52,376 nucleotides of DNA from Psammoneis japonica (Eukaryota). The translations under genes were made by a program, and so were the position numbers. Shown here piece by piece: positions 1,916-49,809 of the stretch. The DNA lies in contig QPGO01000012.1 in the NCBI GenBank assembly GCA_008632985.1, positions 806,001-858,376 of the forward strand, given 5' to 3'. A model generated the notes under the pieces. It made no database searches and was not told the DNA's origin. It saw nothing but the letters and a program-made list of their open reading frames with translations. Position 1 is the stretch's first letter; each line of letters opens with the position of its first letter.

Positions 1916-1919
1916 ACCC

Positions 1920-4267: not shown

Positions 4268-4293
4268 TTCGCCTCCCTAATTGCACATTAGAG

Positions 4294-9362: not shown

Positions 9363-9391
9363 CAGTTGCCTTCTGTGGTGTGTGTGCACAA

Positions 9392-9770: not shown

Positions 9771-9862
9771 CTTGCATGGCTGATGTGGCCTGCGCTCTCA
9801 CTTGCAAAAAGTTGTTGTGGCAGAGGGAGGAGGTGGTCAAGGCAAAGGGCAAAACAAGGCCT

Positions 9863-10258
9863 GACGCGTTCCAGCCCTGGGTGGGAGCTCGCAGCACTGA
9901 CGTGTGACACAAAAAATTTTTGTCATCCGTCGCATGTTTCGTGCGTACATTTCTGCGTGTAACATTTCAAAAAAATTGTCCAGACTCGCTGTTTTGCGAA
10001 GCCCCAGACGTTTCACATGACAAATTCACAGAAACAATGATGCGCCAGTTGCATTCTTCAATGTCTGAAGAATGCACCCAGCCAAGTGACAAATGATGTT
10101 CTTCAATCATGGACGAGTTTGTGCGTTCGCAAAATTGCCTCATTTTCTGTTGGCGAACATTGACATTTTAATTGCCTGACAATTTGAGTGCGGAGCTCGC
10201 ACGCAGAATTCTACGGGCCCAATGTCACACGGATTCCCACCTGCGTCTGGAACGCGTC
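9863..10258 (+). mobile_element. MITE, same subfamily as 8967-9362, TSD GCCT
   Basis: Perfect TIRs, GCCT duplicated, interior colinear with the 8967 copy. Confidence 0.92.
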
Positions 10259-11675: not shown

Positions 11676-13352
11676 TCATACATTTCGCATAACGTTGTCA
11701 CCCACGCCATTCGCGTCAAATTCTTCGCTCTCGTTGGGATTCTCACCGATATCCTGCAATTGCCGTTGCGACGGTGTTCGACGCCTCGTTGAATCGCTGG
11801 CTCGCCTACGGTTTAGGGCGTCCACGTATTCTTCCTTGACACTATCGTTGGAAAGATTCGTTCCACCGTGATAACTGATATCCAATCCCACCAACTCCTC
11901 CAACGAATCGGACCTAAACCATCCCTTGTAATTGAGCCAAACGAAAAAGGGAAACATAATTGCTGTGACCCAACCCACAATAAAGAGAATTCCACACGCT
12001 TGACAGGCAAGCAGCCTCGCGTCGGCGTTTCCCCGCCCCCACGAATAGAACCAACCGACGTGATCATCTCGTTCATAGGCCGCCAGCATGCGTGACGGTG
12101 ATGCAAAGAAACCCACCGCCAGGACGCCCCATGCGCCATTGGCCAAGTGTACGGGTATCGCATCGACCGCATCATCAATGCGCTTCTTGATGAGCATGTG
12201 GGACGTTGCCAGATACAAGAGACCGCCGAGTCCACCAATCACCACGGCCGCCCACGGCTCTACAACACCACAACCGGCAGTAATGGCAACAAGGCCACTG
12301 AGTGCCCCATTCATGGCCTTGAGCAAGTCAAAATGAGCCTCACCGTAAATTCGTTCCTTGATGATGAGATTGACCATGAGGGCTGTCACACAGCCCGATG
12401 CGGCCGATAGCGTTGTGGCGGTGCCAGCCACGGCGGCAACCTCTCCTTGATTGACAGTGGGACTCAGAGTGAGCGCCGAGCCAGAGTTGAAACCGTACCA
12501 ACCAAACCACAAAATGAAGGTACCCAACATCTGTGCGAATTACGAGAAACGAACGGAACTATGTGTAAGGACATTGAAGCTACACAAATCACAAGAAAAA
12601 AATCAAGAGAGAATACTTACTTGAAGAGCTGTAGAATGCCCTCGAATGGGCTTTGGCTTGGGCAGTGGGTTTCCACGATTGTCATAGAACCGTCCCTTTC
12701 TCGGACCCAACACAATCGTTGCAAAGATTGCTGCAATACCTCCGGTAATGTGAACCACACCGGAACCGGCAAAATCAATCATGCCGCTATCAAAAAGCAA
12801 GTTCACATTGGACGCACTCAGGAATCCATTGTGACTCCAAATGGAGTGTGCCACAACGGGATAGACAAATCCAGTCATGAGGACAGAGTAACAGAGGTAT
12901 GCTACCATTTGACATCGTTCCGCCAGCGTACCAGCCACAATGGTAGCAGACGTCGCTGCAAAGGCAAATTGAAAGACCCAAAAGGCTAAATTGTCAATTC
13001 CGTGCATGAAAAAGTTTTCATGACCGATAAACGTCGTCTTTGTGGAATCCTCTTGTCCGCCAAACGCAAAGGCATATCCGACAGAAAAGAATCCCAGCGC
13101 AGCTCCACAGGCATCGAGCAAGTTCTTCATCATTGTGTTTTGTACATTCTTGACTCGGACACTACCCGCACAAAGCATAGCAAAACCAGCTTGCATGAAA
13201 AACACAAGAGCTGCCGAGAGAATAAAGAACCATTGAGTATTGTTGTAGGTTTCAGTCGTAAAGGATGATTCGAGTGTCGTGGCTATGCATTCCAACACAG
13301 CCTCGCTCCCCAGAGAACCAACTTGGCTCTGGCAGTCTTCAAACACAGACAT
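11676..13352 (-). CDS. AMT: Ammonium transporter, AMT1 family; exons 13352-12621 and 12530-11676 (~528 aa)
   Basis: Motifs FFMQAGFAMLCAG, FQFAFAAT, DFAGSGVVH, LWFGWYGFN, IDDAVDAIPVH. Phase-0 90-bp intron GTAAGT...CAG at 12620-12531. Confidence 0.95.
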
Positions 13353-15878: not shown

Positions 15879-17657
15879 TCAATGCGTTGCACCACTGGTC
15901 GACTCAACGGCCTTTCGCTTTCTGCTACGCGGTTGGCTTGGTTTTCCAATTCGTTTCTGATATCGCTGCGTAAAGAGCGTCGCCTGATGCTTTTGCAAAT
16001 ATCGAACCAAATCGTGAAGCTTACTCAAGATTGGCCGGACTTCTTTTCGACTTGACAACACCAACATCTCCATGAGCTGCGGCAATTGAACCAAAAGACG
16101 CAACAAGAATTCACACCCGTACACTTGACAAGGACGAAGCGGTTCGATCTCCTTCGATGCCGTGTTGGCTATAGCTTCCGTGCTACTTTTTGTAGCATCA
16201 GTGTCCTCCTTTAAAGCAGCATTGTACACGGGCGCCGCCTCCTTCTGTGCCATATCTTTAGAAGCTACATTGTCCGCGGGAGCCGACTCCTTTGCCCAAT
16301 CGTTTGAAGCGTCATTGTACTGGGTGGGAGCCAATGAGGCGGGATCAGCCTCATTCGCAGACTCGCCCCCACCAGCAGCAGTGGCAGCTCCTTGAACAGA
16401 TGATGCCGCTGCAAAATAATCAAAATCATGTTGTTGCTCTTTCTCTTGGGAATACAAGAGACGAAAGGCTAAAGCTTGATCAAACAAGAGACATATTCCG
16501 TCCACCATGTCGGTCCATTCCGTTATTTTGGCTTGGGTTTCGTCACAAGTCTCGTTTTGCATAGCCGTCTGTTTCTCTGACGAGTCTTGGGTTTGCTTCG
16601 AGACTTTTTGCACGGCAACCCGCTTTTCGGTAGAGGCGATGGTTTGAGCCGCGTCTTTTTGCGGCGCTGTCGTTTTCTCTGAGGAGTCTTGGGTTTGCGC
16701 CGAGTCTTGCGGGACCTTTGCACTCTTCTGTTTGTAATTGGAGAGTTTGACTTTTAGATATTCTTGCAAGGCTTGATAGACGGACATCTCGGCTGGTAAT
16801 TTGTGCACCATGTTGCATTGTGTAACGATTTCCCATTCTTCCACCATTATTTTCTTGAGAGCAAAAGGCAAGACGATATTGTACTCGTGATTGCTATTGT
16901 TGCGCGACGTTAGCTGAGATGATCGGTACAATTCCTTTTCCCGAGCAAAATTGACTTTTTGCTGCCTTGTTTCTTGAGTTGAATCTACCGTGCCATCTTC
17001 GTTTTTCTTGGAAAGTTCTTGCATGCGCTTTTTGAATTCCAACATGACTTTTTGCTTGTCTCGTGTCTTTTTCTTGGCCTGTTTGATTTCGTACTCGAGC
17101 TGTTGTGCGAGCCGTGTTGTTTCCTCTGTAATTTCAAACAACGAGTCTTGATCCACCCAGCGATCCCACTTGACATTCCATCCCAAGTAATGCACAAAAT
17201 AATGCCAAGTTGGAGTAGGTTCTTGAACAACGTTCGTAACAGGTTCGCCGGGAAGAATCTTGATTTGCTTTGGAGGAGCTGTGCCATACAATTTTCTACG
17301 AATCACAGCCTTGTACAGGATTCCTGAGCCTGACTCATCACGTGCATAGACTCGAGCAAGGGGTGCGTCGAACTTTGGCGGTGGAATCGCGTCTTGTTGT
17401 TGCTCCTGTTCTGAGGCATTGTTCTCTTCGTCACGATTTGGTGCTTGGGTGGGCTGCTCTTGTTGTTTATCTTCGTTGAGCAGCGTACTCCCATCATCGC
17501 CATTGCCCGGTATACGCTCGTCTGTATCCATAGCTACAGATTGATGTCCGATATGCTGAGCCTGTCGGGAGACACCGCTGCTCATTGCCGCTTCACTCGC
17601 CATGGTGTTAAAAGATATTTGCAGACAAATCTCAGAAAAATATGTGGGAGAAATCAT
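15879..17657 (-). CDS. MRG15/EAF3-family chromatin protein (chromo-barrel + MRG domain); start may be ATG at 17603
   Basis: HYFVHYLGWNVKWDRWV (chromo-barrel); LPFALKKIMVEEWE, LLFDQALAFRLLY..E..Q, VYGCEFLLRLLVQLP (MRG domain). Confidence 0.9.
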   Translation of the reverse strand: MISPTYFSEICLQISFNTMASEAAMSSGVSRQAQHIGHQSVAMDTDERIPGNGDDGSTLLNEDKQQEQPTQAPNRDEENNASEQEQQQDAIPPPKFDAPLARVYARDESGSGILYKAVIRRKLYGTAPPKQIKILPGEPVTNVVQEPTPTWHYFVHYLGWNVKWDRWVDQDSLFEITEETTRLAQQLEYEIKQAKKKTRDKQKVMLEFKKRMQELSKKNEDGTVDSTQETRQQKVNFAREKELYRSSQLTSRNNSNHEYNIVLPFALKKIMVEEWEIVTQCNMVHKLPAEMSVYQALQEYLKVKLSNYKQKSAKVPQDSAQTQDSSEKTTAPQKDAAQTIASTEKRVAVQKVSKQTQDSSEKQTAMQNETCDETQAKITEWTDMVDGICLLFDQALAFRLLYSQEKEQQHDFDYFAAASSVQGAATAAGGGESANEADPASLAPTQYNDASNDWAKESAPADNVASKDMAQKEAAPVYNAALKEDTDATKSSTEAIANTASKEIEPLRPCQVYGCEFLLRLLVQLPQLMEMLVLSSRKEVRPILSKLHDLVRYLQKHQATLFTQRYQKRIGKPSQPRSRKRKAVESTSGATH

Positions 17658-20264: not shown

Positions 20265-22204
20265 TTAAAATGCACACTGACACATCCGCTGAATGCAGGC
20301 GGTGCAGCCCTCTGTTGGCTGGCAAAAAAATGCCCCTTTTCACATGAAACAAGCGGTCCCAACAACTTGCAATGCCCTTTTCGAATGTTGCAAGACAAAT
20401 GGTTTCAAATGTGATGGTGTGGGCACATGCAGAAATGTCTTGTGCATGCACCCATGCATTCGAAACTGAGGACGGACCAAGTTGTTGATCGCCAAATTGT
20501 TCCGTAAGATGAGAGCTCTGTTTTCTGATGAGTGATTCATCAATGTGCTCTCATGTGTGTAGAAACAATGCAAATTAATCTTCTCATGTACAAAAGGGCT
20601 CTTTGATGCAACTCTCAATGGGCTGAATGAAACATGCGTTGACTGACAAGTTTGAGAAGGCCTGAGAAGACGTGAAGTTCAGCCCATGCAATGGCATCAT
20701 CTTTGCACCCTTTTTCATTGTTTTGCCGGCATGAATGACTGACACACTTGCGTCATTCGACACAATGGAGGAAATGCACATGGAGGTGGAGCAGAAATGC
20801 TCCTTGGCAGCAAATTTTGAGTGAGTTGAGGCTCAGTTGTTGTTGCTGACAGATGCAGTCTTCTTGTGCCATGCTGCAGCCAGCAACAAGCATTTTCATT
20901 GTTGTGACAGATGACACAGACTGTGTCAAATGCTGTGGTCCTTGTCATGACATTCAAATTTCCATGGGGTTGAAAAAAACAGGCCGTCTTGGTTGCTGAA
21001 AGCCATGGCCATCTTGGCTCTGCTGGTTGGTTCAAATTTATGTTTTAACTCACATTTGACAAATGTCTTTGATGTTGAATGAAGCACAAAACATTTGTTT
21101 TTTGTGCAAAAAGGGGCACGCACATGCCACCCAAGTCTGGAACAAGTCCTGGCCAACCAATGGAGATGAAAGGGCCACAATGTTTTGGCTGCAAGATGAA
21201 AGGACTGTCTTGGTCACAACTGGCACCAAACAAGTGCAGGATGTTTTCCTTTCATCTGAGGAAATCTGGGGCAGTGAGAAAAGCCCCATGACCCAAAACC
21301 CCGCTCATGCTCACATCTTGATTTCTCCCCTCATTGGCTGGTTGAATGAAGGAAACAATGAAACTTTCCTCTTTTGTTTTGTTGCACAATGTGCGCCAGA
21401 TTTGCCACACCAACTTGAGCTTTTGTGGGCTTCTTTGGAGCAGATGGTGTGCTTGAAGAGACCACCATGGAAGCACATCTTTTTGCCCTTGAGAAAGTGC
21501 CCCCCAATGGTGTCTGCCTCACTCGTTGAGCACAGTGCACAAAAAAAGGTGTTTCAGCAGCCACAGGCTCTGGACAAATCAACAGCCAGATGGGAGGATC
21601 ATGACAGTTGCAACCACACATTGAAACATCAATCAATTTTTCCTTGTCTCATTTCCTTGTCTTTCCTTGTCCAAGGAAATTCAGAGTGAAAACAAGGAAT
21701 TCCCTGTGATCAAAAACCCCAAAATGATGCATTGATTTCACACACAAAATGACTCCATCTGTGGTGTCGCTGTCAAATTTGCACTGTAAAACTGTTTGCA
21801 TTTCCACTTGCCATCACAGAAATGGACTTGTTGTCACAAGATTCTGCACAAGTTCCAGTTCATTTGCCACACAGTTTATGAAGAGCCACCCCCCACGCAG
21901 CTGGACGATTGCCCAGTGTGGGCAAGACAAAGGTGTGAGCGCCACAGGCTCAGACATGCAAGTGCCACAGTCCAGCACAAAAATTCCACGTGGAAGCAAG
22001 GGATGTTGCCCATCCGTCATCAGCGAAGTGTCCATTTTGGAATTGTTGCTCCATTGTTCTGCACTGTGCACACAAGACTGGCCACATAAAAAGGTGCTAA
22101 CGCGTGCTCTCGAGCTCTCAAAATTTGTTTCGAGAAAATGGCACTTGCAACATTTTTGAGTGACATGACACAATGCAAGTGCACACACAAAACATCACAT
22201 GAAG

Positions 22205-22596
22205 GACGCGTTCCAGCCCTAGGTGGGACTCCTTGTGACATTGGGCCCGTAGAATTCTACGTGCGAGCTCCGTAGTACGAGAATTTAATTAATGGACACA
22301 TTTGTCATCAACATCAAATAAACGCCCAAGTTTGTGGTACAATTATGCCTCTTACCACTCGACGTTTTTGCAACTTCGCCTGCCCTACGCGATTCTTAGG
22401 ACATTATAGAATCGCGCTGTAACAAAAAATGTCAAAAGTTGTTGGACGGATCGCTCAATAAGTGTGTACCGTAAAATGACACAAAATATCGAAAAAATCA
22501 CGTAGAAATCTACGTGCGCGACATACGACGAGACTCAAAAAACTATCGATGTCACAGTTCAGTAGTACGAGGTCCCACCTAGACCTGGAACGCGTC
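22205..22596 (+). mobile_element. MITE (second subfamily), TIR GACGCGTTCCAG, TSD GAAG, largely unmutated
   Basis: Perfect TIRs, GAAG duplicated; reverse complement of 29624-30013. Confidence 0.93.
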
Positions 22597-22639
22597 GAAG
22601 TTCATGTGCACATGAGGATTGCCATCAATTTTTATTTGC

Positions 22640-24805
22640 ATCCCTCTCCGAAAGAATTGCACTGGCTTTGGCGGTTTTCTTTTTCTTGTTTCGCGCCATC
22701 TGCTCAGCGCTCTCTGCCCGCTTGTTCTTCCGCTTCTCTCTCTTGCTTTTTGCAAAATGCGGTTGAGGATGTCGTCTCCAGGATGAGGGCACATCTCGTC
22801 TTGGTCTGCCTCATCAAGAAGTGGCTGATGCTTGGCACAAAGCTCGACCTTCTTTACATCCTTGACACCTGGAGGTGTCAAGGCACGTGGTTGTGATGTT
22901 TGCAACTTCTGTTTTCGTTGCTCGCTCGATTCTGTCTTCCACTTCTTGAGATCCTCGCTGACTTCAGGCTCGCCGTCAGCTGCCTTCATTGTTGCTGCCG
23001 CAGGTTCCGAAGAATCTGTCACTTCAAAGCAGCAGCACTTCGTAACTGCACTGTGCTTCTTGCGGTGTTGGTCAAAGTGCGCTCCACACCCCACAAAATC
23101 CTCCTCCGTCGCTTCAATGACCTGAACGCATTCGGAGGTGTCCAAAGCTGTCAAGAGTTTGCAGAACGTGCCAATGTTCTTGTCATGGCAAGTTTGCTTG
23201 AGGCTGTTGAAGAGCCTGTCACAGGCATTCTTGGTGTGCCCTTTTGTCAAAAAAATGATGCTCACTTCTTTGAAATGTCCTTGTTCCACCAGGCATGAAG
23301 CAAGTCTCACCAATGCCATGTTGTTTTTTTTTTGCCCGATGCAGTTGTCAAAAATCAATGCGAGCTTTCTGCCTGGACCCTTGCTGACATCCAACAATCC
23401 ACCATCATGCAAGTGCTTCATCACAAGGGAAGCAACATTGTCACCTCCCTTTTGTCCAGCACCCTCATGGCAGACGCGCGCATGCAAAAAATCCTTGAAC
23501 TCATCTTCCGTCACCATCGCAACTTTTTTCCCTGCATGATCGGCAACCCCAAACATGTTGATCGTCAAAGGAGAGAAGCAGCACGTCTCCCCTGGCTGAT
23601 CCGCCCCAAAGTGTGGAAGCCCGCCATTTTGACAATGGCCACCAATCCTCACGCAAGTTTGCTTGCCGTGTGCCTTGTCGGCTTTTGCGTGTTCTGTCGC
23701 TTCCAAAACATGCTGTTGCACGAGCGTCCGTTGCTTTCGAGCCCACTTGACGTACTTTGCAGCATGCAATGTTTCATTTTCCTGTTCTTTGATCTCTTTC
23801 ATTCTCACCTCTGCATCTGCTCCATCTTCTTCACCATCATCGCTTTCCTCCTCCTCGTCATCGTCGCTCTCACCCCCATCTTTTCTTTCATCGCTTTCAT
23901 CCTGAAGCTGTTTGCCAACTTGTGGCATTTGTCGCAGATGTCACGAGTGGGCCTTCTCATGACCATTTCAGGACAGCTCTTTTTCCAGAACTTGCAAAAT
24001 TGTGCCCAGGAGCACATTGGTTGCTGCTCTTCTCCTTCAACTGGTTCCGCCTTGAGAAACTTTCCTTTGTGGTTCGATTTGAGGGTCCAACCATTTTCTT
24101 GTCCGTGTCGTTTGTGTGATCCACGCTTTTTCACGTTGGGAGGCAAGTCATGTGTGTCTTCATCACTCAAGCCAAAACCTGTCTCTTCTCTAACCAGTCT
24201 CGTTGCACGTGGTTCAGAAAGTTCCTTTATGTCGTCAAAATGTGCGTGAAGCGCTGCATGCATTTTGGGTGCAAGCGTCTTGTTCGCGTTCTGCCCAGTC
24301 TTCCCTTTGAGACCGTGTTTCGGAAAGACGTTGCTCTTTGCACTTGACTTCGCAGTTCTCCAGAACTTTCTCCCTTTGCCTGGCAATGCAAGGAGGGCAC
24401 TGCAGCAGACCAGATGATCATCCGGCAGCATCCCCTCCTCCTCCTCGTCATCGTCAGCGTCAGTTTTCAACAGCGGCAAAACAAAGCAGCGACAATCACC
24501 CTTGCATGCATGCTTCTGAACAAAAGCAGAGTGTTTGATCCAGGATGTAAAAGCAGCACGCGTTTCTGTGCATCCCAGTCTTTCAAAGTGCACAAGGCAG
24601 TTGCTCAGCATTTTCACGACGGAGCTGTCGTTGTTCTCCAACATTGCTCTTGGCTTCTGCAGACACTGACATTTCGCAGGTTTGCAGTCACTTGGATGCA
24701 GTGTTCATGGAAAATGGGAGACTCTGTGGGGTTGGAAAGCCAATCGTAGAACTTTTCTGCAGCCTCATTGTCCTTGACGTCTTTGGTTGGTTTCGGCCGC
24801 GCCAT
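22640..24805 (-). pseudogene. Sola1-like DDD transposase, frameshifted
   Basis: QNGGLPHFGADQPGETCCFSPL..FGV, LIFDNCIGQKKNN, FLTKGHTKNACDRLF, DICDKC, spread over ORFs 24614..24805, 23805..24644 and 22579..23928. Element termini not found. Confidence 0.8.
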
Positions 24806-25162
24806 TTTTTTGTGACTCTTTTACTTTGCTCTTGTTGCCACCACCAAGAGTTTTTCAAATTCGAACCCTGTTTTAAGCACTTCACAGTTTGCACAACATC
24901 ACACACACTCAACAACCACATGTCATTGTGTGACTTGCGCACGTGACTTTCTTGGCATGTCATTTCGCGCAACATCTCAACGGTCAAAACACTCACAGTG
25001 AACCATTCAAGCCGTTAATTTAGTTTGTGGATGACAAAATGTCATGGAAGCATTGCCAGCTGTTGACACATGCATCGCTCAAAAGCTGAGATCAAGAGCT
25101 TTCGTTCGGCATCCATGCCTCAAAATCGACCACACGAGCCATTTTGAGCTCCGTCAGCACCT

Positions 25163-26167
25163 TTGTGTTGCGAAGGGCAGGACACAAAAACCACCGAGAC
25201 GCAGGATCGGATGATGCCTCTTGACGTTGTTGCAGGGCTTGCAGCCCTTGACGCTGGTCTCAGATCCATTGATGAAGCCTCAAAAACGGCACAAGGCTTG
25301 TCACAATGGCTCGAAGAGAACAGAAACAGCAACCCCGGAAGATTTTACTGCCGAGCAAAGGATTGCTTGAAAGAACGCGGTGTCCTTGGTGTGGAGGCCG
25401 CCCTCCAAACACCCTTGAGTGGTGAAGCCCCCCAAAGCGCGAAATCCCCCAATGTTTGGAAATTGATTGATCTTTTCGGTGAGAATGATCAAGGTGACGC
25501 GTGCCCCTCTGGTGTCGTCCATGTGTTGTGCGACAAGAGTGGGAATGGAAAAAGTCATGCCGGGTGGGCTCTGTTGCAGGAATGTTTCGACCTTGGCAAC
25601 AACGTAACCAGGGAATCATGTTTTCAGGAGATGCGATGAAAAAAAACTTGCCAGAAGCATTGTGTTCAGAGCTTGGAGGATCGTTGGTCAATGGGTGGGT
25701 CGACCTGTTGCTCCATGCAATGGACCAACAACCGCGGGCCACATCATTTCCTTCCATTTTGATTTTGGACGGCTTCAATTCAGCGGGAGAAAATGAAGTC
25801 AATGTCGAGTTTATCAGGGCATTGCATGAACGCATGCAGGCACAAAAGAGTGCATTTGTTGTGGTTCTTGCTCAAGACAAAACGATTGCTCAGGAACTCT
25901 TCAATGCCAATGGTGGGGCAAGAATCGTCCCTCTTCCGGGTTCGATGGAAGGGACAACAGATCAACCGAGTTGGAAAGAAGAAAAGTGGACAGTTGAGGA
26001 ACTCGTTGAACTCATTCACTGCAAAGAGCCAGGGGCACACACGGATGATCAAATGCGAGAGTTTGTTTCTCCCAACATGACACCCAGATGTAAATGAGAA
26101 GCTGTCGGGAAAGCGAACCCGCAAGAAACCCGACAGTCCTCGAAAGAAGCGGGCAACTGCAAACTAG
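25163..26167 (+). pseudogene. P-loop NTPase pseudogene
   Basis: VHVLCDKSGNGKSH (Walker A-like) and SILILDGFN (Walker B-like) lie in different frames; basic C-terminus; TA-depleted. Confidence 0.6.
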
Positions 26168-26971
26168 AAACAAGGTTTGACATCAAATTGCTCTACGACG
26201 CGTTCTTTCATGAAGGCTGTGCATGTGTTTTTGTTGTTTGCATGGCCATTGCTTCGTGGTGGTGGGTGTTGTGCCCAGACACTCAGTCAGACAAGTTCAC
26301 TAAAAACAACTGCTGACAAAAGAGAAAGAAATCGATGAGCGCATCGGATCCATCCCAATGCTCATTCATGCCAGTCGACGCCAACCATCAATGTCTGCAG
26401 CCGATTGGCCTCATCTCTAGTGGGATGGAATTGCTTCCGTCAAAAGGACATGGCAGAACACACAGGCCAAAACACAGGCCAGACCCATGTCTCATCAAAC
26501 TGTGTGAATCCAACAAAGCAACGGAGAAAGACAAAGAAGACTGCGATGACAGTCTGGATGGCCTTGACAATGATCCAGACCATGAAGAGGGCAATGACGA
26601 TGACAAGGAGTGAGGATGAGTGAAGTGCCATTGCAGACCAGTTGTTGTTGGAAGTCAGGCAATGCAGTTGGCCATCTGTTGAAATGAATCTTTTGAGTTG
26701 GGAGTTGGGCCAGCGCACAATGGAATTGGGGGGAATTGGGGGGAAACAGGGGGAAACAGAAGTCAGGCTGGCGTGTCCATCCCCTCGAGGGCTGGAGATG
26801 CTGATGCAGAAGATGGGGGTGTCCATCGTTTGGCTTGGGCAACAAACCACCCCGAGGGGCTCTGGGTTTTTCGACCTGAGAGCGGCTCTGGGATTTTTTA
26901 AAAAAGTCCATTTCTGCCAGTCTGGCTTGCAAATGCAGAGCAAAACTGACAAAATTGTGATGACCAAATGA

Positions 26972-28250
26972 GCCAGCCTCACTCTTGCAAACATTTCTGA
27001 GATCGAAACTGGCTCAAAATGGAAGCACAAAAATGCCAGCCTCACTCTGAGTTGTTTTTGTAAGACCAATGCTGGCAAAAATGTGCAAACCTTTGCCCCA
27101 GCCTGGCTCTTGCAAAAAATGTCAAGAGTGACTCTGGGTCATCAGGACCACAAAATTCTCCCAGCCCACAGCTGGTGAAACAATCCAAGAGCCACACTGG
27201 GAAATTGGAGACGATCCAATTCCCAGCCCATCTCTCATGAATGTTTGTGAGAGCCACAGACGACGTGTTCCAGCCGCACGTGAACCAAATCGTGCACAAA
27301 AACGACATTTGCGCGATTTTTGCGCGGTCCCTAACTTACGATCGAACTTTCACCACCAAAAGTATAGATTTACACAAATATAAATGTTTTGCAACACTAA
27401 CAAGACTCGTGTGAGTGTTGCAATATCATTGTTATTGTGCTATATATGTTTTTCATTGCGTTAAAAGATTCGTAACACAACGGATGATTTTCGGCGAAAA
27501 TATTGCCGTTATTTGGATGTTACCTAAACACATCTTTCTACGATGCTATTTGGTAGGTTTTCTACCTACAAAGAAATCTCAGTATAAATCTACTGACGTA
27601 CAATCAGTATTGAGTCTACTGAGGAAGTTTATGATACATATCCCATGAGGACTTGAATACCCCACAAAAAACTGTTTAAATGTTCACACTCTAGACGCCT
27701 ATAAAAGCCAATCCGCTTAAGTATTTTATATGAAAATGCTCCATACACTAAAAGATACATAATTTATATTCAAAATCAATAGGAATCTTTCGAAAATGAC
27801 CCGTGACGTAAAAAGCATAAAATAATTATGGACGCCTGTAGAATCTACACGTTTTTGTACTGAAACTGATATGTTCACACAATTTGTGCAAAAATAGACT
27901 TGACTGTTGTCGGGTCAGGCGCATTTTTGCAAATGTTGTATTGAAGAAAAATACGCCTGATCAGAACAGTCAAGTCCATTTTTCGCAAAGTTAAAATTCA
28001 CTAAGGACAGACAAACAGACTTTTCAATAATTATCTTGGTGCTGTTCTACACATTTCTACGTAAATGACTCTACAGCGCGAAAGATTGCCATTGGATTGT
28101 CGTTTTGTGCGTCACCTGGGACTGGAACACGTCAGACTGGGACATTCAGTGAGCGCGAAAATCCCAGCCTCACTCTCAGTCAAATTTGTGAGAGCCAGTC
28201 TGGGAACCCAATGATCCAGCCCAGCTCTTGTTTGTTTTGCCAAGAGCCAG
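26972..28250. repeat. Array of ~42-bp palindromic units with ~20-bp variable spacers (period 62-63 bp), interrupted by 27262-28133
   Basis: Units at 26972, 27035, 27097, 27160, 27222 and 28163, consensus SCCAG-N5-CTCTYR-N10-YRAGAG-N5-CTGGS. Confidence 0.75.
27262..28133. mobile_element. 872-bp non-autonomous TIR element (GACGTGTTCCAG), TSD AGAC, AT-rich, TA intact
   Basis: Perfect 12-bp TIRs one base different from the MITE TIR; AGAC duplicated. Confidence 0.9.
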
Positions 28251-29623
28251 GGCGGCTGAGTTTGTGTGTCAGTTCGGAGTGTGCATTGACTGTCATGCCT
28301 GAGATCCTCTCAAAGAGGTGGAGCACAGGCTTGGTGGCCACGAAAAATGCACTTGGAGCCACTGCTTGGGCCGGGGTTTGCAATTTGTGCACCCCATCCA
28401 AACGGAAGACTCAGAAGAAGGCCCCGTGGCTCAAGCTCCCTGCTGTGAAGGGACGCTTCTACTCAGACCAAATGTTTTTGAAGGTGAAGTTGACGCACGG
28501 CAAGACTGGAGGCAGTGTTTTTACTGACGGCAGAGGCTGCGATCAGCTCCATCCTTGGAAAAGGAAGCAGGACCATCCTGATGCCATCATGTCGTTCACA
28601 CATGATGTTGGTGTGCCTCAATCCCTGGTGTCTGATGGTGCACCCCAAATGACTGACGGTCACACCAAAGACATTTTTGCAAGGAATGCAGGATGCACCA
28701 GGAGGTGACTGTGCCTTGCAGCCCTTGGCAGAATCTAGCTGAGTCCTCCATCCATGAGATTGGGAGGAGAGTCTGAATGACTCTACACTGGACAGGTGCA
28801 CCACAACGTCTTTGGTCCCATGCTGTGACCTGGGTGTTTGCTGTTTGATGTTCAGTTGCCAGCAACATGTCGGACATGGAGGGACAAGTCCTGGAGGAGG
28901 AGATCACGGGTTCAATGCCCAACATGTCTGCTCTCTCTCTCTTTTCAATTGGCATCAACCTGCACATTGCCACATGCCTGTGGCGGATTTTACATGCAAG
29001 AAGAAGCACATCGGACGCTGGATTGGCATTGCAGAGAATTGCACAGACGAAATGGCTTTTGTCATTTTGCCTGAATCTGGCATGCCCATCATTTGGAAGG
29101 ATGCATGGGGAACACCCGAGGATGACCTCAAGACTCCAGCCATTGAAGCGGCTCTTGTTGAAGTGGACCAGGCCCTTGTTGAGAGGCCAGGCGACCCAAA
29201 AGGGGATGCTGAGACGAATTTCCCAGCAACTCTGGATGATTTGTTGGGCAATGACTTAGACGACCCAGTGGAGCCGGTGGAACTGGGCTCTGCTCAGGAC
29301 GAAGCAGCCGATTGTGCCCCGGAGGGGTTGGATGAATGTCTTGCCGCTGACGTCATGCTGCCACGAGGCAGAAAATTGACTCATGCCAGGGTTGTTGCTT
29401 GCAAACGTGACAGTGATGGTGTTCCTGTGGGTGAAAGGAGCAACAATCCTGTTCTCAACACTGGAGTCATGTGTGACGTGGAATTTCCGGGTGGATCCAC
29501 TGCATTGCACACCACCAGCGTCGTCGATGAGAACCTGTTCTCACGGATTGACTCTGAAGAAGGCAACGCCCATCAGATCATGAAGGAGATTGTCAATCAC
29601 CAAAGCAATGCCCACGCTGTCAA

Positions 29624-30013
29624 GACGCGTTCCAGGTCTAGGTGGGACCTCGCACTGCTGAACTGTGACATCGACAGTTTTTTGAATCACGTCGTATGTC
29701 GCGCACGTGGATTTCTACGTGATTTTTTTGACATTTTGTGTCATTTTACGGCACACTCATTGAGCGATCCGTCCAACAACTTTTGACATTTTTTGTTACA
29801 GCGCGATTCTACAATGTCTTAAGAATCGCGCAGGGCAGGTGCATTTGCAAAAACGTCGAGTGGTGAGAGGCACAATTGCACCACAAACTTGGCCGTTTGT
29901 TTGATGTTAAAGACAAATGTGTCCATTGATTAAATTCTCGTACTGCGGAGCTCGCACGTAGAATTCTACGGGCCCAATGTCACACGGAGTCCCACCTGGG
30001 GCTGGAACGCGTC
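29624..30013 (-). mobile_element. MITE (second subfamily) inserted in the copia, TSD TCAA
   Basis: Perfect TIRs, TCAA duplicated; inverted copy of 22205-22596. Confidence 0.93.
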
Positions 30014-30631
30014 TCAAGGCTGATGATGGGCTCATGACATCTGATGCTGGAAGGCGAGTCACCAGGATGACCACCGCTGGTTGGCCCCTGCAAGTCAAGT
30101 GGAAGGATGGCTCCACGTCATGGGTTCCTCTCAAGGATTTGAAGGAATCCAATCCAGTTGAGGTTGCTGAATGTGCTGCAGCAAATGAGATTTCCAGCAA
30201 ACCAGCTTTCAATTGGTGGGTCTGAGACGTCTTGCGTTGAAGGGCCAGAATCTTGAAAAAGGTCAAGTCGAGTCACTGGAAACGTGTGCACAAGTTCAGA
30301 ATTGAGCCACCCAAGTCTGTCAAGGAAGCTCCAGAAATGGATGACAGAATGGGGACTGACTTTTGGTTCAAAGCTGTTGAAAAGGAAATGAGGAACGTCG
30401 TGCCTGTGTTCAAGTTCCGAGACAATGACACTGCACCAGTCGGGTGCAAGCATCATGTTGATTGTCATGTGGTTTTTGACATCAAGAGCACTCTCCAATG
30501 TAAAGTGAGATTCGTGGCCGGAGGCCATCAAACTGACCCACCCAAGGAATCAACTCATTCCAGCATGGTTTCGCGTGATGGCATGCGTGTTGCTTTCACT
30601 GTCACTGCCATCAATGACCTGGAGGTCTTGA

Positions 30632-31131
30632 GGATGGATCTGCATGCTGCAGTCTGTTTTTTGGAAGTTCGCATTTTTTGTTAAAGTGCCCCAGACACAT
30701 TGCAGCAAATGCTCATGCGTTTGCAAAAAATGTTTTCAGAGACAGGTCAAACTTTGTCCATTCGCGAGACATCATGGAATGCTCAAATGACACACATGGC
30801 CATGCAGGACTTTTACCTTGTCGACTGCAGATGTGTCCACAGCTGGTCAAATGCCACTTGTCGGCATTTCCCGGAAAGTTGCGGCGAATCTCCCATGAGA
30901 AGCCCAATTTCAGTGAAAATCAGCGGTTTTTCCAACCTGACAACAGGGCATTGGCCGACAAGTGGCATTTGAAGTGATGAATGTGAAGCTCTCACAGGCA
31001 TTTGACAGCCCTTGTGAGGGTTTGACGAGTGGACAAGTGTTTGGGGGTGTTCCGAGACAGGTCAAAATGACGCGGTGAAGTGTGGGAAATGCGAGCCATT
31101 TTAAATTAGACCACAGCACGTAGATCCATCC
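30632..31131. mobile_element. 500-bp non-autonomous TIR element (GG...CC ends, TSD TTGA), Kolobok-like
   Basis: 24-bp imperfect TIRs GGATGGATCTGCATGCTGCAGTCT / AGACCACAGCACGTAGATCCATCC. Removing it restores copia RT NDLEVL-SADAQN. Confidence 0.85.
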
Positions 31132-32937: not shown

Positions 32938-34425
32938 TCAGTGGATCGCAACACCACAGATGCCGCATTTGTGTCCCGTTTTCTTGCCGCACACCTGACA
33001 GATGATCATGTTCCATGTGTGCTTGAAGATTGACTGAGCGTGACATGTGCACACACTCAAGTCACCACAAAGATGCGCCTTGTGGTCTGGATCACTTGCT
33101 TTTGGAGGTTTCTTTGCTTCGAGGAACTGACACATTGAGAGATCAGGTGCCGGTGGTCCCTTGCATCATCGCCATTTTTTGGGAGGTGGCATTGGTTCTG
33201 GGGCCTTGTCGGGCGAGCCGTCATTGGAACTTCCAGACATTTTTTTGTGTTGTTCAGAATTTTGCTGCGTTGCCACTCTCATGAAGGAGTTGCCAGGGCA
33301 ATGATGGTGCTTCGGATCGCAACGGAGCATCTGCGCATTCAGTTTCTCACAAAACGTGCAAAAATCAACTGGTTTTGACACATGCCAGGTGGGGTCGAGG
33401 TCTCCTTTGGCAACTTCCAAGCACATGTTGCAGGCGATGACACATGCCAGAGCTTTTGCATGGTTCATTGGCAAATGCCAATGCTCCCAGCTGTGGCAGA
33501 AAATGTGCACATTTTTTGTCATGTGGTCCATGCGGTCCACACCCCAACGCGATCCAAGTTGAGTCTTGTGGGCTTCGTTCATCTCAATCGCCCATGCTTG
33601 CTTGTGTTTTCCAATGCCGCGCTGTTTGCCTTGCATGCAAAGTTGGATGCTGTTCCACATGTTGACAGTGGAAATGTTGCACAAGGAAGTGAACTGGAAC
33701 AGCAAGTGGACTTTCGTGTGCTTGGCGTTGCCTCCTTTGGCCGGGATGGTCTTCACAGCCACAACAGGCTCAATGAAACGGGCACCCTTGGTGACTTGGT
33801 TGATGACTGTCTTTCTGTGGTGTGGAGAAACTTCTTCTTGACACCCTTGGGGAGCTGGTCATGTTGGCAAGTGCGCGTCATTGAATTTCCATGCTCACCC
33901 ATCCAGCCCATGATCTGGTCACCCAAAAAGAAGTTGTCCCACGTTTGATGCGGTTTTTGCAGAAAAATCTTCTTCACAGGTGTGTCTTCAGGGGCTGCTG
34001 GTTGTCCGATCACCATTTTGTCCAACTGTCCCATCAGCACTCAGACCTCAAGCAGCCCAGTTTGCGTCCACCCGCCTGGCTTTGGGCGCAGCTTGTGAGA
34101 GGTTGAATTTGATTGGTGTCTGTCACAATGATGATTTGACTGCCCTTGGTGATTCCAGGCTTTCTTGCAATGCAACCCATGAGTCCGCTGAAAGCTTTGC
34201 CGCAGCCGCCATGTCCTCAAGTTGTTTGTCGCCACAAACATCCAAAGCAGCGAGTTTCGTCATCACGCTCACGTTGTGGACAATCATCTTGTGAATGCAG
34301 CCACACTTGTGTGCCGGGTTGCAGTCATCCTCATCTTTCTTTGGGGACTTTTCATTGTCATTGAGCTTGTGGACACGTTTGATCTGCAACCAGCGGTGAT
34401 GGCTGATGGGTGACTCAACAGTGCA
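32938..34425 (-). pseudogene. piggyBac-like transposase, C-terminal two-thirds, decayed
   Basis: RWLQIKRVHKLNDN...CNPAHKC, TWDNFF, TCQHDQLP, GVDRMDHM...W.HW, and Cys-rich C-terminus CQVCGKKTGHKCGIC. Confidence 0.72.
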
Positions 34426-34949
34426 CACTGACCGCAAGTTGTGCACCATCAATGCCAGCCTGCAGGTGAGACCCGGAGCCCATGTTGGCATCTCAACAAT
34501 CGTTGGTCCGTTGGGCTGCTTCCAGACCTCGATCCTGGGATCGGCCCTGCTCGGCCAGCGGGCCCTTGTCAGATGACCGAGTCCTGGCCTCCCCGTCAAA
34601 GTGTCACAAGTTGTGAGGAAGAAGCTGTGATTGCGACGCTCGACATCGGGCAGCTCCACGTGCAGTGCAAGGTTTGAGATGAGGTTGTGACCCGGCGGCT
34701 TGATGCCACACACTCGTGCCTGCCGGAGACATGCTCAAGCTCACGATCTGGGCTGCTGGACTGGACAATGTCCATGCAATCTGCATTGATTGGGTTGCTC
34801 GGTGATGGTCGCCATCACAGGCGGACTTGACCAGGATGACAGAGATCTCCAAGTGGCACGGGAGCGTGGCACCCCATGGTCTGCGGCTGTTGATCAGTCA
34901 TCAGCACGCTTTGCAAATGGTCAGACAGAGAGTGTGTCACCCTCTGACC

Positions 34950-35690
34950 CTCCCCCTCAGTCCTCCGGGTCAAAGTGTCACCCGCACTGCTCCAGCTTGC
35001 GGGCGCAGGCCGTGGCCATGATCTCACGTGCCCAAGGTGTGTGGATGCCACAGCAGTCGTGGTCGCGGTCGCGCCGCGACTGGGTGGGGTTGCGGCACAG
35101 CAGGGGGCGGGGCTTGTCCACGCCAACCTTGTGCAAGGCCTTGCCCAGGCCCTGCTGCATGGCTTCGAAGTGGATGACATGATTGGCCCCGGCCATCCAG
35201 TTGACCGGCACCATGGGCTTGTGCCCGAGGGCTCGGCAGAGCGCTCGGGGCACAGCGACGGACCACGACCCACTTGAAGTCGGGTGCGCTGAAGTCGTCG
35301 CTGATGCTGGGCAGGTGATGGATGAGGCATTGCAAGGCTGAGCCAGGTCACAGGGATTGCACACGCCCACCACCACCACCAGCCCATCCCGCTCCTTGGG
35401 CATCACAAGGCTGAGATTGTGCCGGCCTTGCAACTGCGGGCGTGTTCAGTCAGCACCAGGTCGCAGGGATTGCACACACCCACCACCACCAGTGGCCCAC
35501 CCCATTCCTTGGGCATCACCAGGCCGGAGGCCAGGAACTGCTTCAGCATCTGGTGCTTCTGGTGCAGGATGATGTTGCCTTGCATGTCACATGTGCGGTC
35601 CTCTGGCAGCTTGATGCCACCGAAGTCCTCACAGAAGAGCGTGCCCAGCAAGGTGGAGCTGACGTGGGGGGGGGGCTGCAGGAAGGGCGG
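34950..35690 (-). pseudogene. GC-rich sulfotransferase-like gene fragment (Sulfotransfer_2-like), with internal ~70-bp duplication
   Basis: VVVGVCNPCDL (cf. VRNPYD), VIHFEAM, HDCCGIHTPWAREIMATACARKLEQCG (cf. Y..Y......V...Y..D...FGY). ~35343-35412 is repeated at ~35456-35525. Confidence 0.55.
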
Positions 35691-35794
35691 GCCAATTGGT
35701 GGCCAGCAGCTCACACGCGAAGTTCAAGCTCCAGCAGAAGGGTGGCAGCATCAATGGCATGAAGATGAAATGCAGCAAGCACAGGTTCAGTGAA

Positions 35795-35985
35795 ATGACA
35801 GAATTTTCAAATTTTCACAAACAAACAGGCGCCGCGCTGCTGGTGAGCTTGATTGTCTTGCTCTTGCCTGCCATGGTTGGGTCAGCCTCAATGGATGTCA
35901 CTGCCACTGATGTGAAGGTGGCAGCCAATGCCAAAGACAGGCAAATGGCTTTCAATGATGCCGATGCCAAATTGTTTGAAGGTTG
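35795..35985 (+). pseudogene. pilX: Fragment of bacterial type IV pilus assembly protein PilX N-terminus
   Basis: MTEFSNFHKQTGAALLVSLIVLLLPAMVGSASMDVTATDVKVAANAKDRQMAFNDADAKL matches the PilX_N pattern QxGxALxVSL...G.S.M......K.A.N..DR..AF..AE..L. Confidence 0.7.
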
Positions 35986-36049
35986 TGAAGATGTCAGCGT
36001 TGCCAACAAGTGCCGGATGTTGTGCACTTGGGAGATCTTGCAAGCTTTC

Positions 36050-36950
36050 TGTGGGCACAATGTCACAATTTGTCTCACCTGTGGCTGGGACACACAAAGA
36101 ACCCATCACCAGTGGTCCCCTGCTTGGCCTCTCCAGACAGCACGAACCCAATGGACTCTTGTCTCCACACCTTGCACCCGCCACACTCAACCCCTTGACG
36201 TGCACGGCAACCACCTTTTCTCTTGCAAGTTCCACAAAACACCAACACCCAATGCAATCTGAGATGCCCTGCATGCCACAATCTAACCCATCTGCCCCAT
36301 CGTTGACATCACCTGCTCACCTGGCACCACCACTTGCAAGCTCCAACACCTCATCCCCAGCACAGCCAAGTGCCCAGCCAAAGTCTTCATCTCCCTCAAA
36401 AAGACTCGCATGGCCAGTTGCTCATGCAAAGCCTTCAGGACGGCCGCCATCAACATTGTGCTCTCTGGGCCAATTTCTGCTCCCTCGTGCACTTCAAAAA
36501 CATCTTCCCATGCACTGCAGGCAGCTGAAATCTCCAAATCTCATGACTCCGACACTGCATCCTCCAATGGTTCCTTCACCGGTGAGCACACAATTGACAC
36601 CCTCAACAACTCAACATCCTTCTCATCCCCTTTGGCATTGACCACCTTGGCTGCCTTGGCCCCTTTGCCCATTGTCTTCTTCTCAATGCACCCGCACCCC
36701 AACTCTCCCATGGAGATCCACCACTGCAATTCCCCGCTGCACAACTGCCACTCAACAACTCTGCACCTGGTGAGCCCTCCCTCCGCCGTGCACCTCCCAA
36801 TGGCTCGGCTCCTCTTGTCACACCTCTGCACCCTCCCAATGGGCCCTCAAATCCCTTGGCTTCAACATTCTCACACACCTTTCCAACCACTGTCATTGCT
36901 CACTTGACAAACTGCATTGCTTGCACGCAGGCTCGGACACCTTTTTTTGC
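36050..36950 (+). mobile_element. 3' fragment of a second RLE-type non-LTR retrotransposon
   Basis: LDVHGNHLFSCKFHKT..NAI*DALHATI (zinc knuckle/HNxIRD) and LIPFGIDHLGCLGPFAH (RLE end); heavily decayed. Confidence 0.55.
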
Positions 36951-39212
36951 GAACCCACCTCCCCCCGTGTGCTTCTTCTGCTGCCATTGTCACCTCTTGA
37001 CACCATGCTTTGCTGCACAAGCAATGTCTTTGTGAAGGAAGAATGACTCCAACACATCACCATTGAAATGACCAACATGCAGAGGCCTCACAGAATTTAG
37101 AAGAAGAAGAAAAAAGAGCCAAGGGACGGACAGGCATGATCATCAAAAAGAAGGTTTTGTGTTAAAAAGAAGCCAGAAACAACAAAAAAGAAGATGACAA
37201 AAAAGGAAACTACAAATTTGTTGCACCAATGCTTGAACCTGTCCACAGCTTGCCAATGTTCCGTTCATTCGTTCTCTCGTCCTGCACTTCCTGAAACACC
37301 ATGGTTGACCTTGACTCAAGGGAGGCTCTCAACGAACGACTTGCGGATCTCATTGGATTTGAAGATGGTGTTGATGATGTTTTGGATCATTTGATTTCAA
37401 TTGATGCAGAATCAGTGCATGCGCTGACACTGCGACATTTTAGACTCGACACTCTCATTGTTCTCACCACCAAGGAAACCTGATGATTTCCATTTTCTGA
37501 CCCTTGGCCTGGCTTTCACTTCCAAGGATTTAATTGATTGCATGTCTCAGTTGTTGGGCTAAGAAACGGATGCTCTGCGGTCATTTGTGAAAGACGTTTG
37601 CAGGTTTAAATGGGGGGAGACTGTTGTTCTGTTGAAAAAGACTCCCAAACACAGAGCAGGAAAATTTTCAACCACACCTGTTGGAAATCGAGGATTTTGT
37701 TGTGCGGACGACGGCCAGACGGTCGGCTGTCAAAACAAAAGATGCGGCTTATGTTGTGCCGAAGAACATCAGTGTGTGGCACAGAAAAGGTGTGGAAGTG
37801 CACTTCTCACTCTTTGTGGCAACACTCAACTGTTGGCACACTGCATTTGTGTGACTTGTGCTGCAGACAGGAGTCTCCGGGGCTGCATTGTCCAACAGCT
37901 GCCACAAAGAGAAGGCTGGGAAGTCAAGTGGAATCCAAGACTGGCTGGTGTGAGCATTTGTGGCATTCAAGCTTGCTGAACTGACAAGAAGCATTTTGAT
38001 TTTGTTGCTCTGGTTGAAGGAGTGACTGGAAAAGAGCCGTTGCTCTGGCCGAAGGAGTGACAGAACAAGTTGACTTCTCCTTTAGAAAGACGGCACTTTG
38101 GTCTTGAAGGAGCGAACAGGTCAGAATGGAAGAAGACAAGCCTGGACAGATTGAGCTGAAGGAGTGCAAGTGCACTGTTGCAACTTGTGCCACCAAGGCC
38201 AATGAGCATGAAGAAACTGCTGAGAAGGTTGCTCAGCATGTGGGAACAAAGTGTGGTTCTGCAGTGCAGAAATTGGTGACACATTTGGAGGAAACAGCAT
38301 TTTCTGAGCCCAAATGTCCCAAGAATGGTGATGAAGGAGAGAAAGCAATCTGGGTCAAGAAGTGTCACAGGTGCATGAAGAATGAATCAGCGTGCTTGGA
38401 GAACAAGTCCAAGGTGTTTGTCGTCTTGATTGAGGGCTGTGACAAGGCCATGTTGAACAGAGTTGAAAGCTTGGAAACTGCAAGGACATGGAAAAGAAGT
38501 CTGATGTTGTCAAGCTTTTGGCTTCTGTCAAGGAAAAAAACCCAATCCCAATTTAAAGTGCCGTTGCACCTTTGCCCAGCAACACCGGCGCCAGCTGACC
38601 CACACCTCCAGCACACTTGACTTGCAAGTGCGGCAGAAGTGGACGCGATTAGCCTGAAACGGCGCCTCCCGGAGGAGACGCCCGACGGAAATGACTGGCA
38701 ATGGTGCGTGTGCCACGACGCGCCAGTTTCCTGGCTTCCTTCAAACTTTCTTTTAATCGGGGACGAACCACAGTGATCCAATTCTGAATTCGAACCGTTG
38801 TGAACGTCTTGTGTGCCCTGTGTGTGTGCCAGGCGCTGAAAAAGAAGATGTGTCACGACTTTGTCGTTGTGAAAATTGTGAGCTAGTTTAGAGCAGAGAA
38901 AATGGGATCGTGCGAATGGGGAATCTTGCCAAATCCCTGTTCGTTCACATTTGGATCGCACCAAATCGATCGTGCGTTCACATTGTGGATCGTGCGAATC
39001 AAGCCATCACGCGCCATGCACGAGTGATGTCATCGTGTGGAATCACGCTGCCATCGTGGGCCAGACGACGGGCCAGTGTGCTTCACACGGATGCTCTCTT
39101 AGCATCCTTCTGGAGTTGCCTGAGACCCAGAGCCACGCCCTCCTGTGGTCGTGCTTCCCAGGTGCGTGTTAACAATGCCACGTTGCCACGCACAAGAGGC
39201 TTGTGCACGGTC

Positions 39213-42200: not shown

Positions 42201-42506
42201 TAATTCTGGTAACCAAAATTTAACGGCACAGTCGTCAGACGCACCAAACGAGCCTGCTGCCGCAGTCCAGTTTGTCTCAGCCGTTGAATGGCTTCGCAGA
42301 CGTTTGCAGCATCGACTGTCGAGTGGAGCACTGCTGGCGCCACTGTCCAGCAGTGCCTTGGCAGTTTGAGTCTTGCCCTTGCCATGTTTGGCATTCACAG
42401 CTGTGGACAAGATTGGAGTGAGATGAGTCTTTTTAACTCGTTTGCGGGATTGGCCTGCAACACGTGTACGATGGTAATTCAGTTGTTCATTTGCACATTC
42501 ATCCAA
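39213..42506 (-). pseudogene. gypsy #2 pol (PR-RT-RH-IN), open frame but with many missense changes
   Basis: LLDSGAS; WAAPSF, LDLNMGCCH, MHLDD; HADAS, AFYSRKL, DHKNL; HPG..CDRC, CMDMTGP, DRGTEF, NPQANATVERVH. The catalytic YxDD is changed to HLDD. Confidence 0.92.
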
Positions 42507-42542
42507 TGCATTAAAACCACCTGCATCGTGTCGGCCCCCTTC

Positions 42543-49600: not shown

Positions 49601-49809
49601 GTGAAAGCTGTTTCAATCATTAACATATATTAGTAGTTGAGTACATGTTAAAACGTCACGTTCAATCGTCAATATGGCGATGCACATACGTGGAGTGTTG
49701 TTCCACGTACAGTCCTGTGTATGTTTCTACGTGAGTTTGGAATTTTGACTTTTGAGTTTCCACCGCCATTTTTTGATTTTTGTGTGATTGCATTGTTCCA
49801 AGGAACACC

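Follow-up and report, generated by a model that had tools for sequence, protein, structure and literature searches.

Hypermutation directed at the dinucleotide 5'-TA-3' (TpA) is known from a single 2026 preprint, in which integrated viral DNA was affected in mutation-accumulation lines of Bigelowiella natans (Mettrop et al., bioRxiv 10.64898/2026.01.13.699255). According to the main text of that preprint, 231 of 302 new single-nucleotide mutations were inside giant-virus and virophage insertions, and all but one of the 231 were A>G or T>C changes, all of these on TpA. The rate was about 1000 times the baseline, in some lines only, and an ADAT2-like adenine deaminase was proposed by the authors, without proof. 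Here, we examined a 52,376-bp stretch of contig QPGO01000012.1 (the window, to which all of the results below are confined), and in particular two copies, A and B, of one miniature inverted-repeat transposable element (MITE). A DNA-level, context-specific hypermutation of TA to CA or TG has very probably hit copy B, nearly spared copy A and erased TpA from about four-fifths of the window while sparing the genes and their flanks.

The pattern in the window is close to that set out in the main text of the B. natans preprint. In both, the changes are almost only A>G and T>C and are confined to TpA, producing TpG or CpA on either strand; only foreign or silent DNA is involved, the rest of the genome (here, of one window) being ordinary; and the long-term footprint is a depletion of TpA with an excess of CpA and TpG. 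Action is also uneven in both cases, with only some lines affected in B. natans and only some copies here. The targets proven in B. natans are one giant-virus and one virophage insertion, transposons being suggested by Pfam enrichment only, whereas the window has MITEs, a gypsy element and the bulk of its intergenic DNA as targets. The extent differs as well, with 124 genome-wide clusters of at least three 1-kb windows reported for B. natans against 78% of 52 kb erased here. A search of the preprint's main text for the terms 'trinucleotide', 'context' and MITE found none of them.

The host also differs. B. natans is a chlorarachniophyte (Rhizaria), whereas all seven organism-named relatives of the EamA transporter open reading frame (ORF) in the window, among the 120 matches listed, are from diatoms (Helicotheca, Eucampia, Chaetoceros, Rhizosolenia, Thalassiosira, Cyclotella and Detonula, with four names completed from partial entries and three taxonomy identifiers checked), with 62–76% identity. 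A second ORF, encoding an MRG protein, had no match above 47% identity. As the named protein relatives are all diatoms, the window represents a second, ecologically major lineage with this signature. Transposons as substrates, and a density much greater than that reported in the B. natans preprint, are new here. No description of TpA hypermutation in diatoms was found in searches of open-access papers and bioRxiv, and a term search of the text of 10.1101/2025.10.24.684338 found no report of it.

The two MITE copies and their target-site duplications (TSDs) are as follows.

22205–22596, minus strand: MITE copy A, 392 bp with 27 TA, a TA-normal island within TA-erased DNA.
22201–22204, and again 22597–22600: TSD of copy A, CTTC on the element's strand.
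29624–30013, plus strand: MITE copy B, 390 bp with 12 TA, in which 15 TA of the family state are CA or TG and one TA is deleted.
29620–29623, and again 30014–30017: TSD of copy B, TCAA.

When the reverse complement of 22205–22596 was aligned with copy B, the match extended over the full length of both, interrupted by 26 substitutions and a single 2-bp indel, by which a TA is missing from copy B. At 15 of the substitutions copy A has TA and copy B has CA or TG (eight T>C and seven A>G in the orientation of the element), and at one copy A has TG and copy B has TA. The others are two CG in copy A that are TG in copy B, two other transitions and six transversions. There are 27 TA in copy A, where the observed/expected ratio (o/e) of TpA is 0.90, and 12 in copy B, 11 being common to both. 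TA bases occupy 54 of the 392 positions of copy A and include 15 of the 26 substitutions (binomial P = 2e-7), far more than their frequency would give, and the changes are asymmetric in direction, with 15/27 TA altered compared with 1/47 CA/TG (Fisher P = 1e-7). Along the element, T>C is interspersed with A>G, without strand runs (8 runs observed, 8.5 expected). A previous sequence-only reading, made by eye, had counted about 16 TA sites changed to TG or CA, about one change in the other direction and only a handful of other differences; its count of 16 matches the 15 substitutions plus the deleted TA, and its five sequence examples were all found exactly as given.

Terminal inverted repeats (TIRs) are present in both copies. 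By manual count, the first 25 bases of the two ends agree at 23/25 positions in copy A and at 22/25 in copy B, and the terminal stem of copy A forms in the predicted fold (z = -7.9). Three further elements in the window are related.

8967–9362, plus strand: copy C, of a related MITE subfamily, 396 bp with 9 TA, TSD CAGT.
9863–10258, plus strand: copy D, of the related MITE subfamily, 396 bp with 4 TA, TSD GCCT.
27262–28133, plus strand: an 872-bp non-autonomous element with related TIRs (GACGTGTTCCAG), TSD AGAC and 68 TA, an unmutated island.

The exact 12-nt terminus GACGYGTTCCAG is found at both ends of all five elements (copies A to D and the 872-bp element), and the TSD is 4 bp, an uncommon length, in 5/5 (CTTC, TCAA, CAGT, GCCT and AGAC). 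One homologous dinucleotide in the TIR is TA, TG or CA across the ten ends. As a test against a short interspersed nuclear element or a retroposed RNA gene, the window was searched for tRNAs and for Rfam matches at gathering score, and neither was found; Pfam searches of the window ORFs found no transposase or autonomous partner there. Contigs of the public run X1 matched copy A in 2458 pieces, with a summed depth of about 4e4–5e5 within the MITE compared with about 70 in the unique flank, though depth is not copy number and the family size of 'a thousand or more' copies is only rough. Of two other runs compared with copy A, X2 yielded no contig pieces and X3 yielded 13 small pieces. Two metagenome scans with TA-tolerant MITE patterns gave 0 matches each, and a 16-mer scan of viral contigs gave five, a number in which, by our own estimate, chance matches are possible at that collection size. 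Because of the TIRs, the 4-bp TSDs, the short non-coding length and the high copy number, copies A and B are identified as a very abundant non-autonomous TIR transposon of about 390 bp, i.e. a MITE.

The end of copy A is overlapped by 18 bp by a 449-aa ORF (22579–23928, minus strand) containing DUF7869 (E = 3.4e-15). Its low content of Tyr (0.2%) and of TA (3.7 per kb) gives it the look of a further mobile-element gene that has been hypermutated.

The polarity of the changes cannot be read from copies A and B alone, and four independent handles were used, namely the MITE family, the long terminal repeats (LTRs) of a gypsy element, the polymerase of that element and a third pair of repeats. For the family, 28 variant rows were listed within the element from the X1 contigs on copy A. 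In fifteen of these, a T>C or A>G variant lies on a TA present in copy A, with shares of 0.10–0.78, and at 13 of the 15 the variant is in the minority. The rows listed include seven of the 15 TA sites that distinguish A from B, with TA in the majority at five and the state of copy B at two. The remaining eight are unlisted. T>C and A>G account for just five unlisted rows, so that the variant must be below 5% at three or more of these sites. Overall, TA is the family majority at 8 or more of the 15 sites. Both T>C and A>G occur among copies within one TA dinucleotide at 22290/22291 and at 22487/22488, as is expected if TA was the starting state.

The gypsy element spans 38812–44111 and includes the following.

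38812–39245, minus strand: 3' LTR (Ty3/gypsy), paired with 43678–44111.
43678–44111, minus strand: 5' LTR, differing from its partner at 38812–39245 at 25 bases.
39213–42506, minus strand: pol ORF with reverse transcriptase (RT), RNase H and integrase domains; RT motif HLDD.

The two LTRs of one element are identical at integration. The differences now present are six adjacent doubles of CA in one LTR and TG in the other, six TA versus CA/TG, five CG versus CA/TG and two other transitions, with no transversions, and 18 of the 25 differing bases are at former TA sites. Doubles of this kind need TA or CG as ancestor, yet 27 CpG are still shared by the pair (five differ) against two TA, and TA is therefore the ancestor of the doubles, its loss having occurred independently in the two LTRs. 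As the LTRs differ at TA sites, the mutations arose after integration. On the assumption that both directions of loss are equally likely, about 12 TA sites were lost in both LTRs, six in one and two in none. This estimate corresponds to a loss of about 75% of TA per LTR, compared with two ordinary substitutions in 434 bp for the pair, and we infer that TA loss may have exceeded the ordinary substitution rate by a factor of order 10^2 or more.

The pol ORF has a composition of 0.4% Tyr, 4.7% His and 3.6% Cys. In an alignment with the Ty3 polyprotein (7q5b), about 28 tyrosines of Ty3 could be followed by manual count, and 12 are replaced by His or Cys, as TAY codons (Y, pyrimidine) become CAY or TGY when TA is lost. 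The remainder are one Tyr, five Phe and ten other residues. In the RT motif, VYLDD of Ty3 aligns with MHLDD, so that YLDD has become HLDD. More widely, Tyr makes up 0–0.6% of nine transposon-like or unannotated TA-poor ORFs, in which His and Cys are raised, versus 1.6–3.2% of four host-gene ORFs.

The third pair of repeats lies in the left part of the window.

3894–4272, plus strand: TA-rich copy of the third repeat, 23 TA.
9391–9775, plus strand: TA-erased copy of the third repeat, 2 TA.

Between these, 20 sites show TA changed to CA or TG and none shows the opposite. Two local tandem duplications were also seen in the erased DNA of this part of the window (3269–3489/3665–3894 and 5235–5542/5541–5848). 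The second, in a gypsy-type integrase region, has four CA-versus-TG doubles and seven CG versus CA/TG.

The family majority, the LTR doubles, the Tyr to His or Cys replacements and the third pair (20 versus 0) support the conclusion that TA was lost rather than gained and that copy B is the derived copy. The sequence-only reading had presented the pair as a direct before/after view. On this evidence copy B does stand as the TA-depleted 'after' state, and the family gives no sign of a TA-poor root, the majority being TA wherever it could be read save at two sites. Copy A, however, is no pristine 'before'. It departs from the family majority at six non-TA positions, where copy B has the majority letter, and its own letter accounts for 0.15%, 0.6% and 0.2% of depth at 22307, 22325 and 22399, respectively. 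Copy B has at most three private non-TA changes from the family majority.

Copies of similar ordinary divergence differ greatly in their loss of TA: substitution has removed 15 TA from copy B, and just one loss of this kind sets copy A apart from it. Copy-specific or episodic action is hinted at by this contrast, in which the counts are low and part of the difference may go back to the source copies. The hypermutation took place in DNA after insertion, because an element with TIRs and TSDs, which has no RNA intermediate, is affected and because the LTRs diverged after integration. The same had been argued earlier from the TIR structure, and the TIRs, the TSDs, the lack of a tRNA or Rfam match and the divergence of the LTRs all agree with that argument. 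ADAR hyper-editing and APOBEC editing also leave deaminase-type clusters of transitions in mobile elements. However, they act on RNA or reverse-transcription intermediates, hence on retroelements only and before integration, whereas here a cut-and-paste element is affected and the LTRs diverged after integration.

Across the whole window, TpA o/e is 0.24 and that of CA and TG is 1.5. Two-state segmentation placed 40,676 of the 52,376 bp (78%) in a TA-poor state with TpA o/e of 0.05–0.12, except in two small segments, and CA/TG of about 1.5–1.9. The host genes and the extreme of the erased compartment are listed here.

11676–13352, minus strand: ammonium transporter gene, two exons and one GT-AG intron, TpA o/e 0.47–0.73 with the intron included.
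15879–17657, minus strand: MRG/chromodomain protein gene, TpA o/e 0.49, flanks 0.67–0.99.
49780–51075, plus strand: EamA transporter gene, a spared host gene whose named relatives are all diatoms.
33001–36000: TpA-free stretch, 3 kb with zero TpA.

The family of the ammonium transporter was confirmed by comparison with a protein atlas. TA-normal DNA consists of the host genes and three islands (copy A, 27262–28133 and 4001–4900), two of which are whole TIR elements (copy A and the 872-bp element), and the bounds of copy A match those of its island within 100-bp bins. In the host genes, TpA o/e is 0.42–0.53 in exons and 0.62–0.99 in the intron and the non-coding flanks. Retention of TA is thus higher in these non-coding parts than in the exons, which means that it is not due to coding selection. 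Within the window, the hypermutation is confined to non-genic and mobile DNA, and genes and their flanks are spared. GC-biased gene conversion was considered as a source of the composition and rejected, as AA, AT and TT are undepleted in erased DNA (o/e 1.27, 0.88 and 1.22).

The deamination of 5-methylcytosine at CpG is a comparable process, being a dinucleotide-specific decay of silent DNA that leads to TG or CA. It is present here too, with a CpG o/e of 0.58 in erased DNA versus 1.07 in TA-normal DNA and with 2/26 of the A/B differences, but it starts from CG rather than TA and its effect on erased DNA is far weaker than the decay of TA, the LTR pair sharing 27 CpG and 2 TA. The low CpG suggests cytosine methylation of the same compartment, and the erased DNA is probably silent and methylated. 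Values as low as 0.08–0.13 were seen for CpG o/e in 1001–4000.

The TA that remains in erased DNA is not a random sample of contexts. TTAA is enriched 3.6-fold, CTAA/TTAG 2.7-fold and CTAG 2.2-fold, while almost no ATAC/GTAT (0.07-fold) or ATAT (0/246 versus 48/557) is left. A multiplicative model based on the nucleotide that follows the A on each strand, in the order T > C > G >= A, roughly describes all ten contexts. Survival by this 3' base, measured relative to the unmutated islands, is as follows.

TAT: 0.016
TAC: 0.058
TAG: 0.126
TAA: 0.149

Among the family variants, 13/28 TAY targets are affected versus 2/26 TAR targets (R, purine; P = 0.002), a count that up to five unlisted rows could shift. 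A preference for 5'-TAY-3' is thus a possible lead. A product-side test of the 3' context, using the gain of TGN, did not mirror the loss side, is confounded by composition and was set aside. ADAR prefers a G on the 3' side, as opposed to the order T > C > G >= A found here. Its preference for a 5' U is given in the Discussion of the B. natans preprint (10.64898/2026.01.13.699255).

The window thus shows A:T to G:C transitions at 5'-TA-3', on either strand, in integrated DNA, and the erased DNA comprises LTR retrotransposons together with other repeats and intergenic DNA that is unannotated. The agent would be enzymatic, the simplest candidate being a polynucleotide adenine deaminase that may form inosine at 5'-TA, preferring 5'-TAY-3', and the inosine would be read as G at the following replication. 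The enzyme would be directed to mobile or silenced DNA. The predicted outcome is an irreversible inactivation of elements, the mirror image of fungal repeat-induced point mutation (RIP), through the replacement of Tyr by His or Cys and through altered TIRs. At the right end of copy B, a TA within the TIR has been altered, CCTAGG having become CCTGGG.

Several points weigh against this account. The state of copy B is the family majority at 22488 (0.61) and 22545 (0.78), the family share is not listed at up to five further A/B TA sites, and at three sites where copies A and B both have CA or TG the family has 30–43% TA, which is readable as gain of TA. The X1 contigs were required to have at least 80% likeness to copy A, favouring TA-rich copies. 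X1 is possibly the source data of the window assembly, its platform is unrecorded and it offers no independent proof against a systematic read error at a modified base. The context trend between copies A and B runs the same way as in the family but is non-significant (10/28 TAY versus 5/26 TAR, P = 0.23), and TGT is not enriched in erased DNA though TAT is the most depleted, a comparison confounded by base composition. No deaminase or other responsible enzyme was seen in the window, and the evidence is from a single window.

Some of these points would also fit a change in the reverse direction, with RIP-like C>T mutation at CpA having made TA in copy A and copy B being nearer the original. The polarity is open from two sequences alone, copy B carries the family majority at the two sites just named, and copies C and D show its letter at some alignable sites. 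As outgroups, however, C and D are inconsistent, TA having been depleted in them too, a convergence that makes them poor guides, and TA is in the majority or near-fixed at 8 or more of the 15 sites. RIP resembles the process in the window in being a context-specific transition hypermutation of repeated or mobile DNA that acts on DNA, ruins coding capacity and leaves a dinucleotide footprint across genome compartments. It differs in that C:G becomes T:A at CpA, creating TpA and AT-rich repeats, whereas here TpA is destroyed and the DNA becomes GC-richer; the repeat compartment is poor in TpA (o/e 0.10) and rich in CA/TG (about 1.6), the opposite of the product of RIP. With the CA-versus-TG doubles of the LTRs and the Tyr to His or Cys replacements also pointing to the loss of TA, the reverse direction is largely refuted and we consider it very improbable. 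A somewhat better case, though still an unlikely one, can be made for a lack of targeting, with TpA hypermutable across the genome, selection alone retaining TA in genes and copies A and B differing in insertion age. The most depleted DNA is indeed old, unconstrained DNA, and its lower CpG is as expected of older DNA. Against this, the intron and the non-coding gene flanks keep more TA than the exons, the boundaries, abrupt when viewed in 100-bp bins, fall at element ends, and copy B lost 15 TA while having no more than three private non-TA changes compared with six departures in copy A, though these counts are small and some changes may have been inherited. The suggestion in the sequence-only reading that TA loss be related to insertion age finds no support in this pair, as the ordinary substitutions do not make copy B the older.

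The same spectrum and targeting could be produced by thymine chemistry, for example by conversion of T to 5-hydroxymethyluracil at TpA followed by misrepair or mispairing. TA is self-complementary, so that T>C on one strand is A>G on the other, and thymine-modifying enzymes exist in other protists. The sole published proposal for the signature, itself unproven, is adenine deamination according to the text of the B. natans preprint, and sequence alone cannot separate the two chemistries; we regard the thymine route as unlikely. A dinoflagellate with 5-hydroxymethyluracil was considered as the source of the window and dropped, since the named protein relatives are diatoms. Lastly, the CA and TG might really be TA, misread because of a modified base at TpA in silent DNA. 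The platform is unrecorded for the assembly as for X1, and modification would be expected in silent DNA, the very fraction that is affected. On the other hand, X1 k-mer contigs contain 68% of the sampled words of 21001–31000, one X1 contig covers 22121–22231 without difference, contigs of family copies show TA, CA and TG at one site, and separate copies and the two LTRs hold different, stable states. The mutations in B. natans, according to the preprint's main text, were called de novo from Illumina reads. An artefact is the least probable of these explanations and would be very surprising.

Targeted hypermutation of TA in integrated DNA, as preferred here, may have a wider meaning. To our knowledge, context-specific hypermutation of mobile DNA as a defence is well established only in fungi (RIP) and, via RNA or cDNA intermediates, in animals. 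We tentatively suggest, at rather less than even odds, that distant algal lineages (diatoms, chlorarachniophytes and perhaps much of the stramenopile, alveolate and rhizarian group, SAR) share a genome defence based on TpA-directed DNA editing, most simply adenine deamination at 5'-TAY-3'. In the diatom-like genome of the window it would work element by element and episodically and wipe TpA from most transposon DNA. It would turn Tyr codons into His or Cys codons, erase TAA and TAG stops and be a functional mirror of fungal RIP. If the pattern extends genome-wide, the TpA process would be neither a single-species curiosity nor limited to viruses, and it would shape the composition of diatom genomes. 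The MITE family provides a large natural set of before and after substrates for defining the sequence preference of the enzyme.

There are also consequences for annotation. DNA that is free of TA has no TAA or TAG stops and gives long spurious ORFs that mislead gene callers, and transposon proteins that have been stripped of tyrosines become hard to detect. The window contains 166 stop-to-stop ORFs of at least 100 aa on both strands, many of them overlapping, because TAA and TAG are missing from its TA-free DNA. One of these ORFs, at 43993–47943 (minus strand), encodes 1316 aa with 0.6% Tyr and 5.9% His and has no Pfam hit. A Pfam search of 40 further window ORFs gave two matches only, to PilX_N and, below threshold, to TMEM208.

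Some minor features of the window were also recorded. The island at 4001–4900 is 900 bp long with TpA o/e of 0.95, CpG o/e of 1.38 and GC of 0.41, and is surrounded by erased DNA; its left part, from 3894, has the erased paralogue at 9391–9775. Positions 1566–1815 are 250 N, an assembly gap. The TpA-free stretch at 33001–36000 has GC of 0.50–0.60 and CpG o/e of about 0.5, no transposon-type Pfam domain was found in the ORFs tested there, and the adjoining 36001–37000 contains one TpA. The ORF with the PilX_N match (35663–36262, plus strand) reaches into this stretch. The match, to the N-terminus of a bacterial pilin, is above the cut-off (E = 4.5e-7, 30.2 bits); either an artefactual hydrophobic segment from the translation of CA/TG-rich sequence or a remnant of foreign DNA may account for it.

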